DNA of 64,000 nt from Escherichia coli (GTDB lineage Bacteria > Pseudomonadota > Gammaproteobacteria > Enterobacterales > Enterobacteriaceae). The notes beneath the pieces were generated by a model. The model saw only the letters and a program-made list of their open reading frames with translations, did no database searches and was not told the origin of the DNA. The stretch lies in the NCBI RefSeq assembly GCF_003334765.1, contig NZ_QOWT01000023.1. One strand, given 5' to 3'. Of this stretch, positions 51,824 through 63,600 are shown one piece after another. Position numbers and translations under genes: made by a program. Position 1 is the first letter of the stretch; each line of letters opens with the position of its first letter.

Positions 51824-51857
51824 GTAAGCGTGCAGCAAGAACCGTATTGACGGGGAT

Positions 51858-52208
51858 GTGTTATTCAGTCGGCAGTGCTACGCGCCAGGGGAGCAGTTCG
51901 CCGACCCGGTTTATCGGCCAGTCGGCTATGACGTCAAGGACATAGCGGAGGTAGCTTTCTGGCTCCACTCCGTTCAGTTTGCACGTCCCGATCAGGCTGT
52001 ACAGCAGCGCTCCCCGCTCTCCTCCATGATCCGAACCGAAGAACAGGTAATTTTTGCGGCCCAGACTGACCATCCGCAGCGCATTCTCAGCTATGTTGTT
52101 ATCAGCCTCGGCCCAGCCGTCGTCAGTATAGTAAGCCAGCGCTGGCCACTGGTTCAGTACGTACGTGAACGCTTTCGCCAGTTCTGAGTGTCGCGACAGG
52201 GTTTTCAC
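51858..52208 (-). pseudogene. IS66-family transposase, C-terminal 115-aa fragment
   Basis: ...NYLFFGSDHGGERGALLYSLIGTCKLNGVEPESYLRYVLDVIADWP...LLPW is the conserved IS66 transposase C-terminus. Confidence 0.8.
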
Positions 52209-52237
52209 CTTTTCACGTAGCCAGCCTTCCAGGGATT

Positions 52238-52501
52238 TCAGTCGCCTTTGTCATCGCGGGCCGACGGCCAGGCGAAGCGGCCACGCTCCAGCCGTTTGGT
52301 CAGCAGACACAGTCCATCGCCGGTAGACCAGAGGAGCTTTACCTGACTGCCATTACGCCCACGGAAGATAAAAACGTGACCTGACATCGGATCGTCTTTC
52401 AGCGTCGTCTGCACCTTTGCCGCCAGGCCGTTGAAGCCGTTTCTCATATCGGTGATGCCAGCGACGAGCCAGATCTTTGTCCCTGATGGTAATGGGATCA
52501 A
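52238..52501 (-). pseudogene. IS66-family TnpB (ORF2), truncated at the C-terminus
   Basis: MIPLPSGTKIWLVAGITDMRNGFNGLAAKVQ...FIFRGRNGSQVKLLW is IS66 ORF2-like; 87 aa versus about 115. Confidence 0.75.
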
Positions 52502-52935
52502 CGTTTGAGCTCCCTTATCAGCAGGTTCAGGATATTTTCGCTGATGGTACCATTCAAGCGGAGTGAGCCATGCCGGAACGTCACTTCACAGCTGATATTG
52601 AGTGATTCAGGTGCCGCAGCAGCTACAGGTTGTGACCGGGAGGAGGTTGTAGGAACAACATCTTCGGTATCAAGTGTTATGGGGAGCAGCTCAGGCACGC
52701 TGTTTTCTGTTGTTGAAGGAGGGCGTAGTTTTCCTTCGCGCCAGTACTGGCACCACTTGAACAGCAGATTATCGTTGATCTCATGCTCACGAGCGAGTTG
52801 CGCTACGGAGATATCTGGTCGATGCGAGAGTTCAACCATTTTGATTTTGAACTCAACGGGATAATTAGGGCTTTTTTTACGCACTGTGGTTAATGATTTC
52901 ATGGATAGTGTCCACCATATTGAAGTGCGCCCCAA
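52498..52935 (-). CDS. IS66-family ORF1 (TnpA accessory protein)
   Basis: HTH region ...FKIKMVELSHRPDISVAQLAREHEINDNLLFKW... typical of IS66 ORF1. Confidence 0.7.
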   Translation of the reverse strand: MGRTSIWWTLSMKSLTTVRKKSPNYPVEFKIKMVELSHRPDISVAQLAREHEINDNLLFKWCQYWREGKLRPPSTTENSVPELLPITLDTEDVVPTTSSRSQPVAAAAPESLNISCEVTFRHGSLRLNGTISENILNLLIRELKR

Positions 52936-52967
52936 AGGTTAGACACCAGACCAAAAACTGAGGATGC

Positions 52968-53366
52968 ATGGAAAAGTTTTCATTGGAGTTCAAAAAGGTA
53001 GTATCAGAAAAGTACCTGGAGGGAGAGTTGAGTCTGAAATCTGTAGCAAGGATGTACGGTATCAGTCCCTGCACAGTAAGAAAATGGGCTTATGCCTATC
53101 GGGAACATGGGATAAGCATACTTACGGGTAAAAAAGGACGCTATTCTGCTGAGTTAAAACTCACAGTAGTAAAAGAAGTCGTGGATGACGGTTTTTCTGT
53201 TCGTGAAGTAACGGTAAAGCACGGAATACCAGCCTTTGGTACTGTATGCAACTGGCTTGAAAAATATAGAAAATATATAGCGAAGATGCTTTCATTCGAA
53301 AAAATAAAAATAGTATTCCTGTGCCGGATAAAAGCGCCATTTCAGCACCACCACTACCAACATTAA
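52968..53366 (+). CDS. IS3-family transposase OrfA
   Basis: MEKFSLEFKKVVSEKYLEGELSLKSVARMYGISPCTVRKWAYAYREHG...: HTH OrfA. Confidence 0.7.
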   Translation: MEKFSLEFKKVVSEKYLEGELSLKSVARMYGISPCTVRKWAYAYREHGISILTGKKGRYSAELKLTVVKEVVDDGFSVREVTVKHGIPAFGTVCNWLEKYRKYIAKMLSFEKIKIVFLCRIKAPFQHHHYQH

Positions 53367-61800: not shown

Positions 61801-62917
61801 TAAGGATAATATTCTGCTGGTTGATTTTCTGAACAAACCCACCGGAGAAAAACTGGATATTGAACTGGTGAGTGCACCGGGGAACAGCAGTAAGGATGTT
61901 TTTAAAGGAAGTGAACAGGCAATAGGTTTCAGCAATGTCACACCTGTTATTACAGCTATAGACGCCGGAGATAAAACAACATGGAACCTGACCGGGTACA
62001 GGATGGCAGAAAATCCTGCCGCAACCCAAAGTGCCTCAGGCCTTGCATCTGTGGGGTACAAATCATTTTTGAGTGAGGTCAACAACCTGAATAAACGTAT
62101 GGGTGACCTGCGTGACATCAATGGTGAAGCTGGCGCATGGGCACGTATCATGAGCGGAACCGGCTCTGCCGGTGGTGGTTTCAGTGACAACCACACACAT
62201 GTTCAGGTCGGTGTCGACAAAAAACATGAGCTGGACGGACTGGATTTGTTTACCGGCTTCACTGTCACACACACTGACAGCAGTGCCTCCGCCGATGCTT
62301 TCAAAGGTAAAACAAAATCTGTGGGGGCCGGACTCTATGCTTCCGCCATGTTTGATTCCGGTGCCTATATCGACCTGATTGGTAAGTATGTTCATCATGA
62401 TAATGAGTACACCGCAACCTTTGCCGGACTCGGAACCCGTAATTACAGTACGCATTCATGGTATGCCGGTGCTGAAGCAGGCTACCGCTGTCATGTCACT
62501 GAGGATACCTGGATTGAGCCACAGGCAGAACTGGTCTACGGTGCTGTATCCGGTAAACAGTTTGCATGGAAGGACCAGGGGATGCATCTGTCCATGAAGG
62601 ACAGGGACTACAATCCGCTGATTGGTCGTACCGGTGTGGATGTGGGTAAATCCTTCTCAGGTAAGGACTGGAAAGTGACAGCCCGTGCCGGTCTGGGCTA
62701 CCAGTTCGACCTGCTGGCTAACGGCGAAACCGTATTGCGGGACGCATCTGGTGAAAAACGCATCAAAGGTGAAAAGGACAGCCGTATGCTGATGTCCGTT
62801 GGCCTGAATGCAGAAATCAGGGATAACGTCCGCTTTGGACTGGAGTTTGAGAAATCCGCCTTTGGTAAGTACAACGTTGATAATGCTGTCAACGCTAACT
62901 TCCGTTACTCGTTCTGA
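58826..62917 (+). CDS. Serine protease autotransporter of Enterobacteriaceae (SPATE family); family member not determined
   Basis: 1363-aa ORF: extended autotransporter signal peptide (MNKIYALKYSSLTGGLIAVSELSKKV...), trypsin-like passenger with catalytic Ser motif GDSGSPL and His in VVSAKHSG, C-terminal beta-barrel ending ...NFRYSF. Confidence 0.85.
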   Translation: MNKIYALKYSSLTGGLIAVSELSKKVTGKTGRRLMTVSLVLSVTLSALPGKASTVSAEIPYQTFRDFAENKGVFTPGVTGIEINDNNGNKVGVLDVPMLDFSSLSRDGHTTLIHPGYVVSAKHSGLQSVSSATFGYDQIYKIVDNNLAGIDFSAPRLNKLVTEVIPADIQGKDKFNNNRYTAFYRAGVGSQYIRYANGTDKLLQAYTPDKAYLTGGTVGKPYYTHYNGMKMISANPGNTFDKNQGPLASYGQIGDSGSPLYAWDNIDKKWVLTGVTLHNYGVKGARNDWLLIPHDFISQKLQDDLKPIIVASPEENILRWEFDRSRGTGTLSQGEKIFSMTGSVNGNANTGNNLVFSGNEGKIELVSSVEQGAGYLQFDKDYTVLTNNNSTWTGAGIIVGDEANVKWGVNGIAGDYLHKVGSGTLTVNGHGENKGGLKVGDGVVVLEQQPDANQKQQAFSHINIASGRATVKLNGANQVDADNISWGYRGGKLDLNGYDFTFSRLQAADYGAEISNDNQTDKSIVTLSLSPLKAEEINVVVNNINIMGGAGKPGDLYYTTFDGNYYLLKSNRYGSALFGALNNQSEWQRLGKNKEKAIGLYTQMKMQESDLLSYIYHGKITGNTSVEIPKLAGNDILTLDGSVSISGDMSKQDGALIFQGHPVIHAGQTVSASQSDWENREFSLNNLNLNNADFSLSRNAFMNGNIRAVNQSTVIIGGDTVFTDKNDGTGNDVISVEGKSAAAGTSSYTGHITLEQKSALDIRDNFRGGVTSEDSHINVSSSSVLFSDASSFINSSLNIHKGGALTAQGGLFTSGSIDIGDASLLLTGTPVNSDDAAFLPTINMADGGFKLMSDSSVLKARDQASVVGDIISDKQATISFGTESGKEGILSEKASRGLAVGLLSGFNTAYRGAIHAPSASATMNNTWWQLTGDSSLRSLKNTGSMTYFTGSAANKAFHTLTVDELTTNGTAYAMRTDLKNADKLVVNQKLSGKDNILLVDFLNKPTGEKLDIELVSAPGNSSKDVFKGSEQAIGFSNVTPVITAIDAGDKTTWNLTGYRMAENPAATQSASGLASVGYKSFLSEVNNLNKRMGDLRDINGEAGAWARIMSGTGSAGGGFSDNHTHVQVGVDKKHELDGLDLFTGFTVTHTDSSASADAFKGKTKSVGAGLYASAMFDSGAYIDLIGKYVHHDNEYTATFAGLGTRNYSTHSWYAGAEAGYRCHVTEDTWIEPQAELVYGAVSGKQFAWKDQGMHLSMKDRDYNPLIGRTGVDVGKSFSGKDWKVTARAGLGYQFDLLANGETVLRDASGEKRIKGEKDSRMLMSVGLNAEIRDNVRFGLEFEKSAFGKYNVDNAVNANFRYSF

Positions 62918-62930
62918 TACTCCGTATTCA

Positions 62931-62952
62931 AAAGGGCCTGAGGGCCCTTTAT
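62931..62952 (+). terminator. Rho-independent terminator-like hairpin after the SPATE gene
   Basis: AAAGGGCC-tgag-GGCCCTTT hairpin 14 bp after the stop codon. Confidence 0.55.
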
Positions 62953-63037
62953 GCTCAGGACCTGCCGCCCAGGTATACATTTCCGGGGTATCAGTGAGGT
63001 GTACTGGCAATAGCGGACACTACCATTTGTTCTTTTT

Positions 63038-63180
63038 TTAAGCAGCCATCTGATGATATTTTTCCCTGAAGGCTGCCGGGGAGATATTCCCCAGACGAGA
63101 GTGACGACGCTGACGATTGTAGAAAATCTCAATGTATTCCCGTATTACTGATATGGCTTCATCCCGGTTATTAAAACGAT
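63038..63180 (-). pseudogene. IS3-family transposase OrfB, C-terminal fragment
   Basis: Hand translation of the minus strand gives ...EAISVIREYIEIFYNRQRRHSRLGNISPAAFREKYHQMAA*, the conserved C-terminal end of IS3-family transposases. Confidence 0.55.
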
Positions 63181-63196
63181 GTAAGCGTCAACGGAG

Positions 63197-63600
63197 GTAA
63201 GCGTGCAGCAAGAACCGTATTGACGGGGATGTGTTATTCAGTCGGCAGTGCTACGCGCCAGGGGAGCAGTTCGCCGACCCGGTTTATCGGCCAGTCGGCT
63301 ATGACGTCAAGGACATAGCGGAGGTAGCTTTCTGGCTCCACTCCGTTCAGTTTGCACGTCCCGATCAGGCTGTACAGCAGCGCTCCCCGCTCTCCTCCAT
63401 GATCCGAACCGAAGAACAGGTAGTTTTTGCGGCCCAGACTGACCATCCGCAACGCATTTTCAGCGATGTTATTGTCCGCCTCAGCCCAGCCATCGTTCGC
63501 ATAGTACGTCAGCGCCGGCCACTGGTTCAGGGCGTATGCGAACGCTTTCGCCAGTTCTGAGTGTCGCGACAGGGTTTTCATCTTTTCACGCAGCCAGCTT
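63197..63600 (-). mobile_element. IS66-family right-end fragment (IR plus transposase C-terminal 115 codons, 63234-63581), near-duplicate of 51824-52208
   Basis: First ~230 bp are identical to 51824 onward; the protein differs from the 51858-52208 product at 5 of 115 residues; preceded by a 16-bp IR stub GTAAGCGTCAACGGAG at 63181-63196. Confidence 0.75.

Follow-up and report, generated by a model that had tools for sequence, protein, structure and literature searches.

Two related fragments of IS66-family insertion sequences (IS) lie in the same orientation on either side of espI, a SPATE gene, in the 64,000-nucleotide stretch of Escherichia coli DNA that we analyzed (contig NZ_QOWT01000023.1, assembly GCF_003334765.1; hereafter the window). 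The upstream part of the window is core chromosome carrying tor, cbp, rut, put, efe, pga and ycdU, after which come a tRNA-linked site, a tyrosine integrase gene, a DUF3987 gene, a Gp2-like gene and the primase-helicase gene iee. The first fragment (copy A) lies 235 bp downstream of iee, and the second (copy B) lies beyond espI near the end of the window. An earlier note on this DNA had reported that the fragments bracket an IS cluster and the SPATE gene, and had proposed that they can mediate RecA-dependent deletion or amplification of this block and may mark how it was acquired. RefSeq annotation of near-identical genomes bears out the bracketing: an IS3-family pseudogene, IS200, IS1, an IS2-like element and espI all lie between the two copies. 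The origin suggested for them fares differently, and we conclude that the two repeats are very probably relics of two separate IS66-family elements with no function of their own.

Two IS66-family right ends in direct orientation

Alignment of positions 51824-52231 with 63197-63604 yields an ungapped 408-bp direct repeat whose starts are 11,373 bp apart, and a repeat search identified it as the sole long repeat within 48-64 kb; a 20-nucleotide repeat at 59485-59504 and 63831-63850 was judged to be a chance match. The copies are identical at 384 of 408 nucleotides, which is hardly the weak similarity that the earlier note had named as grounds for abandoning its view. The narrower interval given there (51824-52208 and 63197-63581; 365 of 385 identical) is real, although the repeat runs on to 408 bp and copy A extends further still. 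What had been described as about 230 bp of identical sequence was measured as a perfect block covering repeat positions 1-226, and all 24 mismatches fall in positions 227-408. The chance that 24 evenly spread mismatches would all miss the first 226 bp is (182/408)^24 = 4e-9. Because the mismatches are clustered to this degree, we regard the pair as a mosaic rather than as an evenly diverged duplicate.

Each copy encodes a fragment of 115 amino acids, and the two are identical at 110 of these residues, as previously noted, when the GTG start is counted as methionine. Both match positions 296-385 of the 387 in the NCBIfam IS66 transposase model NF033517 (E about 1e-32), with scores under its full-length cut-off for fragments that represent the C-terminus only. 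Since the matches cover the last 90 positions of the model, copies A and B are right (tnpC-proximal) ends. Their tips are located at 51824 and 63197, where the terminal repeats start with GTAAGCGT. IS66-family elements are defined by terminal inverted repeats starting with GTAAGCG; they generate an 8-bp target site duplication, and a potentially mobile copy carries tnpA, tnpB and tnpC between two intact ends. Neither copy in the window has this structure: copy A retains an intact tnpA with truncated tnpB' and tnpC', and copy B retains only tnpC'.

Comparison with known isoforms offers an explanation for the mosaic. Copy B is of the ISEc22 type throughout, with seven mismatches in 408 positions relative to the ISEc22 of an O104:H4 genome (98% identical). 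Copy A differs from the same element at two positions within 1-226 and at 22 within 227-403; it is of the ISEc22 type over positions 1-226, shares a variant at 182/183 with copy B, and then switches to another, third isoform. Judged by these alignments, the 226-bp perfect block is the same ISEc22-type right end in both copies. A complete copy B in strain 102651 is of the ISEc22 type over positions 1-313, is identical to copy A over 314-501, a tract that spans an internal deletion junction of copy A, and is 99.7% identical to ISEc8 over its last 650 bp. The element at the copy A site of a horse strain is a further mosaic of the same length. On account of these mosaic tracts, IS66-family copies in these genomes clearly exchange patches by homologous recombination. 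We withdrew a single-nucleotide polymorphism at position 377 as proof of conversion from A to B in 102651, where the common allele is found and the window copy has a private base. Another cluster of differences lies in the right end of an ISEc43-like element beyond copy B: seven of the 18 differences between the window and strain USDA5905 over 13 kb fall within 135 bp (63642-63776), where the window is identical to 102651. This further recombination patch is not explained by the model for copy B truncation given below.

Origins of copy A and copy B

Window positions 51000-64000 match eight complete E. coli chromosomes at 99.3-99.9% identity: NCTC9082, O55:H7 USDA5905, H3, OZ547038, 20AR0300, HSP425, 102651 and O111:H21 15A. 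Coverage is 97-100% in seven of them and 93% in O111:H21 15A. These genomes come from different sources, and at least two are of different serotype. In NCTC9082 the integrase gene adjoins ycdU and a tRNA-linked RtT match, and annotation places iha further right in the island. The island has a tyrosine integrase gene at a serine tRNA locus together with iee and variable cargo, iha among it, and we assign it to the SpLE1/OI-48/TRI family at serX because the integrase and tRNA-linked site lie next to ycdU and because of the identity of iee. RefSeq labels the iee product a 'TOTE conflict system archaeo-eukaryotic primase domain-containing protein', and it carries D142, D144, H178, D216, K451 and R735, the motif residues reported for the IS-excision enhancer IEE, all at their published positions (PMC9943667). 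The gene is 97.2% identical at the nucleotide level to the O157:H7 copies, is present in about 684 complete genomes, and is a conserved backbone gene directly to the left of copy A. An IS66-family right end is found 235 bp downstream of iee in about 628 of these genomes, a linkage that is not mentioned in two papers on IEE (PMC9943667; bioRxiv 10.1101/2023.06.07.543989).

The copy A site is occupied far more widely than espI is. A query comprising the left flank and the IS66 end was covered to position 1006 in 628 complete genomes, most of them without espI. Occupants of this site include a longer, partly deleted ISEc22 (O104:H4, O10:H32), a full ISEc8 (O103:H2) and the same deleted derivative as in the window. 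The accompanying cargo differs as well: iha only in O104:H4 and O10:H32, a hypT-racemase-dcu segment in Esc11 and 5CRE51, porin and F17 genes in the horse strain, and espI in the opposite orientation in O103:H2. Because the same site is occupied in about 628 genomes with differing cargo, copy A is conserved island backbone and predates espI at this position.

Past position 52231, copy A continues through a deletion junction (52241/52246; about 1,300 bp missing relative to full ISEc8) into tnpB' and tnpA, and is therefore not a bare end. On its own left side about 66 bp, the left inverted repeat among them, are gone and are replaced near 52919 by an IS3-family element. The deletion junction occurs in 72 genomes, at the iee site in those inspected and once more within the complete copy B of 102651. 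Microhomology at this junction was considered as a signature of IEE and rejected, as the junction holds a 5-nucleotide filler instead, with no clear microhomology. The left flank, in which GTTTGTTG is joined to GTAAGCG, is identical in seven of nine loci tabulated. It is missing from O111:H21 15A, where copy A is truncated; there (near 6001 of locus L003) the element lacks its first 80 bp and abuts unrelated chromosomal genes (aldose epimerase, fucP and rbsK), and the examined stretch on its left does not contain the part of the island that runs from the integrase to iee. No target duplication was found for copy A when an IS66 tip beside a second GTTTGTTG was sought across all loci examined. 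The element has GTTTGTTG on its left and various sequences on its right, and the elements of the horse strain and O104:H4 likewise lack a target duplication.

Further to the right, USDA5905 retains 278 bp of backbone (locus L001, 23157-23434) between an inverted IS66 fragment and the iha-proximal region. The same 278 bp are missing in O104:H4, where the ISEc22 left end directly abuts GATTCAGT (locus L004, 16641/16642). Since one genome keeps this segment and the other does not, the O104:H4 arrangement looks like the product of a deletion bordering the left end of the IS66 element.

Copy B has a different and more recent history, which can be read from its flanks. In both 102651 and 20AR0300 a complete copy B of 1,147 bp is flanked by an 8-bp duplication, CAACGGAG. 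The order in 102651 is an IS600 end finishing in AAAACGAT, then GTAAGCGTCAACGGAG, copy B, and finally CAACGGAG followed by CACCGTATTGACGC, and 20AR0300 has the same layout. The left-end tip of B was found only in the complete copy (102651). The duplicated octamer CAACGGAG is also found at positions 9-16 in the terminal repeat of an ISEc43-like element, so copy B arose by a simple insertion within the tip of that element, and the 16-bp stub that precedes it is the piece split off. Indeed, GTAAGCGTCAACGGAG is identical to the 16 outermost bases of the ISEc43-like sequence that picks up again at 63605. The stub at 63181-63196 had been noted earlier as belonging to a second IS66 isoform; it is real, and it belongs to the same element as the sequence after copy B.

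The nested insertions that this stub had been taken to indicate are proven by target duplications, AAAACGAT for ISEc43 and CAACGGAG for copy B. ISEc43 is flanked on both sides by AAAACGAT (63173-63180 in the window; 22582-22589 in locus L001) inside IS600, and Esc11 has an uninterrupted IS600 site that represents the empty site for ISEc43. The two duplications and this empty site prove the order, with ISEc43 lying inside IS600 and itself harboring B and, in most genomes, ISEc45. Copy B stops after 408 bp, directly against a complete ISEc43 tip (63605), in the window and in five complete genomes, and also in HSP425, whose record ends within copy B. An independent copy of ISEc43 carrying ISEc45, 98.2% identical over 3,963 bp, resides in O10:H32.

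Taken together, these observations suggest the following history. Copy A is the resident IS66-family element of the backbone in a SpLE1/OI-48-type integrative element at serX, here reduced to an immobile 1.1-kb internal-deletion derivative that has also lost its left end. An ISEc43-like element first inserted into an IS600 copy just downstream of espI, and an IS66-family element with an ISEc22-type right end then transposed into positions 9-16 of its terminal repeat to give copy B. In the lineage of the window, B would later have been cut back to 408 bp, with a complete ISEc43 tip set against it. Most likely, a second ISEc43::ISEc45 inserted into B and recombination with the resident ISEc43 removed the intervening DNA. 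The mosaic beyond 226 bp results from patchwise recombination among IS66 isoforms, and the repeats are at most a passive substrate for homologous recombination, which would delete the 11.4-kb block.

Several observations weigh against this account. No intermediate was found among the genomes examined between complete B and truncated B with an intact ISEc43 tip. Copy A has no target duplication in any locus examined, and its right-hand neighbors may have been brought in by an IS66-mediated rearrangement. The complete copy B shares the deletion junction of copy A, which would call for either mobilization of a deleted copy or gene conversion. Finally, although no deletion product was detected in complete genomes, this is compatible with a low-frequency deletion that may occur in culture.

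Insertion of one IS66 end into another is seen at other loci. In the window (63181/63197) the insertion lies at 16/17 of the terminal repeat and duplicates positions 9-16; in O10:H32 an IS66 end is inserted at 17/18 (locus L006, about 2066; 2059-2066), and in O103:H2 end stubs of 47, 112 and 69 bp precede a complete ISEc8 (locus L005, 14247-14475). An arrangement of one element's tip, a foreign fragment and then the complete end of the same element was seen twice. A scan for tips within tips in 100,044 species genomes, one per species, yielded 11 hits where roughly 2-4 would be expected, and their offsets span 3 to 29. The junctions include 16/17 (locus L018), 17/18 (Serratia symbiotica) and 18/19 (Acerihabitans), and some hits are self-duplicated tips. 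For enterobacterial-type ends, a preference for positions 16-18 is suggestive. It is possible, if doubtful, that IS66-family elements preferentially insert in the terminal repeats of other IS66-family elements, oriented alike and 16-18 bp in from the tip, immediately outside the conserved CCGTAT motif, and that later recombination leaves stacks of stubs. If this were true, the iee-linked IS66 element would be a hinge for the exchange of island cargo, including espI.

The espI module and competing explanations

The features at this locus are collected in the table.

Features from iee to the end of the window
Feature	Position	Strand	Basis or remark
iee (IS-excision enhancer; PrimPol and SF2 helicase, 786 amino acids)	49228..51588	+	Motif residues; PrimPol and helicase family matches
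Copy A, internally deleted IS66-family derivative (1.1 kb)	51824..52919	-	Sequence, annotation, alignment
Copy A, right inverted repeat tip	51824
Copy A, tnpC'	51861-52241
Copy A, tnpB'	52247-52501
Copy A, intact tnpA	52498-52902
IS3-family element, frameshifted pseudogene, truncates copy A	52921..54342	+	Ends TGAAGTGCGCCCCAAA... and ...TTTGGGGCGCAGATCA
Partial transposase gene, C-terminus missing	54362..54547	+	Annotation
IS200/IS605 tnpA	55035..55493	+	Annotation, inverted repeat, Rfam
Group II intron 5' fragment	55606..56256	+	Rfam RF02001 at 55732-55902, 113 bits
IS1-family transposase gene	56314..57008	+	Annotation; element start near 56257
IS2-like (IS3-family) element	57027..58320	-	Left end abuts espI module at 58320/58321
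espI core module	58321..62995	+	Common to O103:H2 12009, 98.9%; espI coding sequence 58826-62917
IS600-type (IS3-family) end fragment	62996..63180	-	Annotation, sequence; last 8 bp AAAACGAT at 63173-63180
First 16 bp of ISEc43-like right inverted repeat (GTAAGCGTCAACGGAG)	63181..63196	-	Split off by copy B insertion
Copy B, ISEc22-type IS66-family right-end remnant, 408 bp, tnpC' only	63197..63604	-	Sequence
ISEc43-like right end with complete inverted repeat tip	63605..63830	-	Interrupted near 63831 by ISEc45
Start of ISEc45 (IS110 family), inserted in ISEc43	63831..64000	+	Extends beyond window

The window is colinear with espI-less islands over 48095-55602, a segment that includes copy A, the IS3-family element and IS200, and colinearity resumes at the IS600 fragment, which leaves 55603-62995 as the espI-specific segment. 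On its left edge, the group II intron fragment is inserted after the IS200 terminator. The espI core itself lies between the ends of IS2 and IS600, and on either side of it O103:H2 retains more of the native flanking sequence.

Other characteristics of this segment were noted in passing. The 5' structures of IS200 occupy 54903-55026, and the hairpin of its terminator extends to about 55600. Two Rfam matches, STnc100 (54682-54896) and STnc490 (54903-55026), immediately precede the IS200 tnpA gene; in the 5' inverted repeat of IS200, the latter overlaps the left arm (54954-54976) and covers the right arm (55014-55036) only in part. The intron fragment, whose first bases are GTGCG, directly follows the terminator hairpin and T-run of IS200 and is truncated by the IS1-like element; it begins at the point where the window diverges from the espI-less island of Esc11. 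In the slot between the IS200 terminator and the IS600 end, Esc11 and 5CRE51 carry hypT, a racemase gene and a C4-dicarboxylate transporter gene (locus L008, 12482-16062), and the window (55603-62995) carries the intron fragment, IS1, IS2 and espI as alternative cargo. Relative to USDA5905, orfB of the window's IS2-like element has a 1-bp insertion at 57110 that shortens the open reading frame, with a stop at 57103 versus about 57027. In 108 genomes of serotypes O103:H2, O121, O111:H8 and O145, espI (99.3% identical) directly adjoins a full ISEc8 at the iee site, on the side of its left end; in this arrangement (O103:H2 12009, locus L005, 9495-16916) it is inverted relative to the window and ure genes are nearby. 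In NCCP 13963 (NZ_CM167683.1), espI is split in two by a complete IS66-family element with tnpA, tnpB and tnpC, which shows that IS66-family elements are currently active around espI.

Might the IS66 ends nevertheless bound the unit in which espI was acquired, either as a composite transposon or through IS66-mediated capture? The repeats are in direct orientation and bracket espI, and in O103:H2, O121 and O111 the gene is again beside an iee-linked IS66-family element, so the two are repeated neighbors. We consider this explanation highly improbable. The outer flanks differ (GTTTGTTG to the left of copy A versus CAACGGAG to the right of complete B), copy B has its own duplication and was thus inserted alone, and hundreds of genomes that lack espI have the copy A site occupied. 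In the window both copies are missing their left ends, including the outer left end of B that a composite transposon would require. The segment from copy A to 55602 is common to islands with other cargo, the espI core is bounded by IS2 and IS600, and in O103:H2 espI is inverted relative to copy A. No single duplication surrounds the unit from A to B, and it has no usable outer ends. With mismatched flanks and two copies lacking left ends, this unit is, as its sequence reads, not a composite transposon. In view of B's own duplication, these flanks, the missing left ends and the IS2 and IS600 boundaries, the repeats did not bring espI in. The earlier suggestion that they mark the acquisition of the module thus fails, and the comparison with related genomes lacking the SPATE block, which had been recommended as a check, shows the copy A site retained in espI-less islands with other cargo.

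A second proposal treats the repeats as an active RecA-dependent switch that deletes or amplifies espI in nature to give espI-minus or multi-copy variants. RecA-dependent exchange needs a minimum homology of about 30 bp. The perfect 226-bp block in direct orientation is well above this minimum and sits inside 408 bp of 94% identity, so deletion or amplification by this route appears mechanistically possible. Recombination among IS66 copies in these islands is shown by the mosaic tracts, and an experimental precedent comes from Agrobacterium tumefaciens, where a 270-kb deletion in pAt15955 between directly oriented IS66 copies depends on both copies (PMC6778807). Set against this, the expected deletion junction, in which a hybrid A/B repeat would join the left flank to the ISEc43 end, is absent from 5,426 complete E. 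coli genomes: a synthetic junction query was never covered beyond 82%, which corresponds to the flank and the IS66 end only. All eight window-type genomes contain exactly one espI, no duplication of espI was found in any complete genome, and the arrangement has been kept in these eight genomes despite their diverse sources and serotypes. We therefore think such a switch unlikely.

Rearrangement might instead proceed mainly by transposase and IEE, through microhomology end joining and abortive copy-out rather than RecA, with the truncated IS copies near iee as its products. IEE promotes excision and adjacent deletions of IS1, IS3, IS30 and other circle-forming IS (bioRxiv 10.1101/2023.06.07.543989; PMC9943667). 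An intact iee lies 235 bp away from copy A and offers an alternative, transposase-dependent route to IS-adjacent deletions, and the region contains several IS3-family and IS1 copies that are truncated. However, IS66 is not among the families reported for IEE in these two papers, the 5-nucleotide filler at the copy A junction contrasts with the 4 bp or more of microhomology on which IEE relies, and no specific breakpoint here is tied to IEE. We judge this explanation to be quite improbable. The chance that the second copy is an artefact of a collapsed or misjoined repeat, which the earlier note had raised against itself, is practically negligible. We found nothing that favors it; the HSP425 record starts or ends within copy B, which is compatible with the cutting of a circular record. 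Eight independent complete RefSeq assemblies share the joins at both copies, and the copies differ at 24 positions and have different, interpretable flanks that include target duplications.

Significance and relation to known systems

The reading of the repeats as relics of two separate elements makes this feature an ordinary one: immobile remnants in a known type of island, annotated as pseudogenes in RefSeq. Its significance hardly goes beyond bookkeeping, as the repeats do not explain the arrival of espI and give no sign of switching the gene on, off or out. What is gained is a corrected anatomy, in which an iee-carrying island at serX holds espI as exchangeable cargo, IS2 and IS600 form the nearest true boundaries of the gene, and, of the IS66-family sequences, copy A is backbone and copy B a nested insertion that came later. 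Such an anatomy should be of use in typing islands that carry espI and iha, and in interpreting short-read assemblies that are broken at these repeats.

Among known systems, the arrangement resembles a composite transposon in that IS-derived sequences lie on both sides of a cargo gene, but it lacks a usable pair of outer ends and a common target duplication, and the flanking copies were inserted independently. Like the segment lost from pAt15955, the block between the repeats is a dispensable segment between two directly oriented IS66-family sequences, and recombination would leave one hybrid copy. The pAt15955 copies are full-length and their deletion was observed, whereas here the repeats are 408 bp long and no deletion product is present in complete genomes.

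The closest relatives of the copies themselves are ISEc22, ISEc8 and ISEc43. Both copies share with these elements the terminal repeats starting with GTAAGCGT and the tnpC C-terminus, copy A keeps the tnpA-tnpB-tnpC order, and the complete copy B has the 8-bp target duplication. They differ from them in being immobile in the window, where A lacks 1.3 kb and its left end and is a hybrid of ISEc22 and a third isoform, and B is reduced to 408 bp.

As for the island, SpLE1, OI-43 and OI-48 (the tellurite-resistance and adherence islands, TRI) and the LPA are known carriers of iee, iha and espI. Compared with the arrangement in O103:H2, O121 and O111, espI in the window is inverted and lies 6 kb from the iee-linked IS66 element, and unlike the TRI islands, the window island carries no ter or ure genes within the stretches examined. 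In its overall plan it nevertheless resembles SpLE1, OI-43 and OI-48, with an integrase by serX and ycdU, iee, and iha to the right, and the LPA likewise carries espI together with iha.

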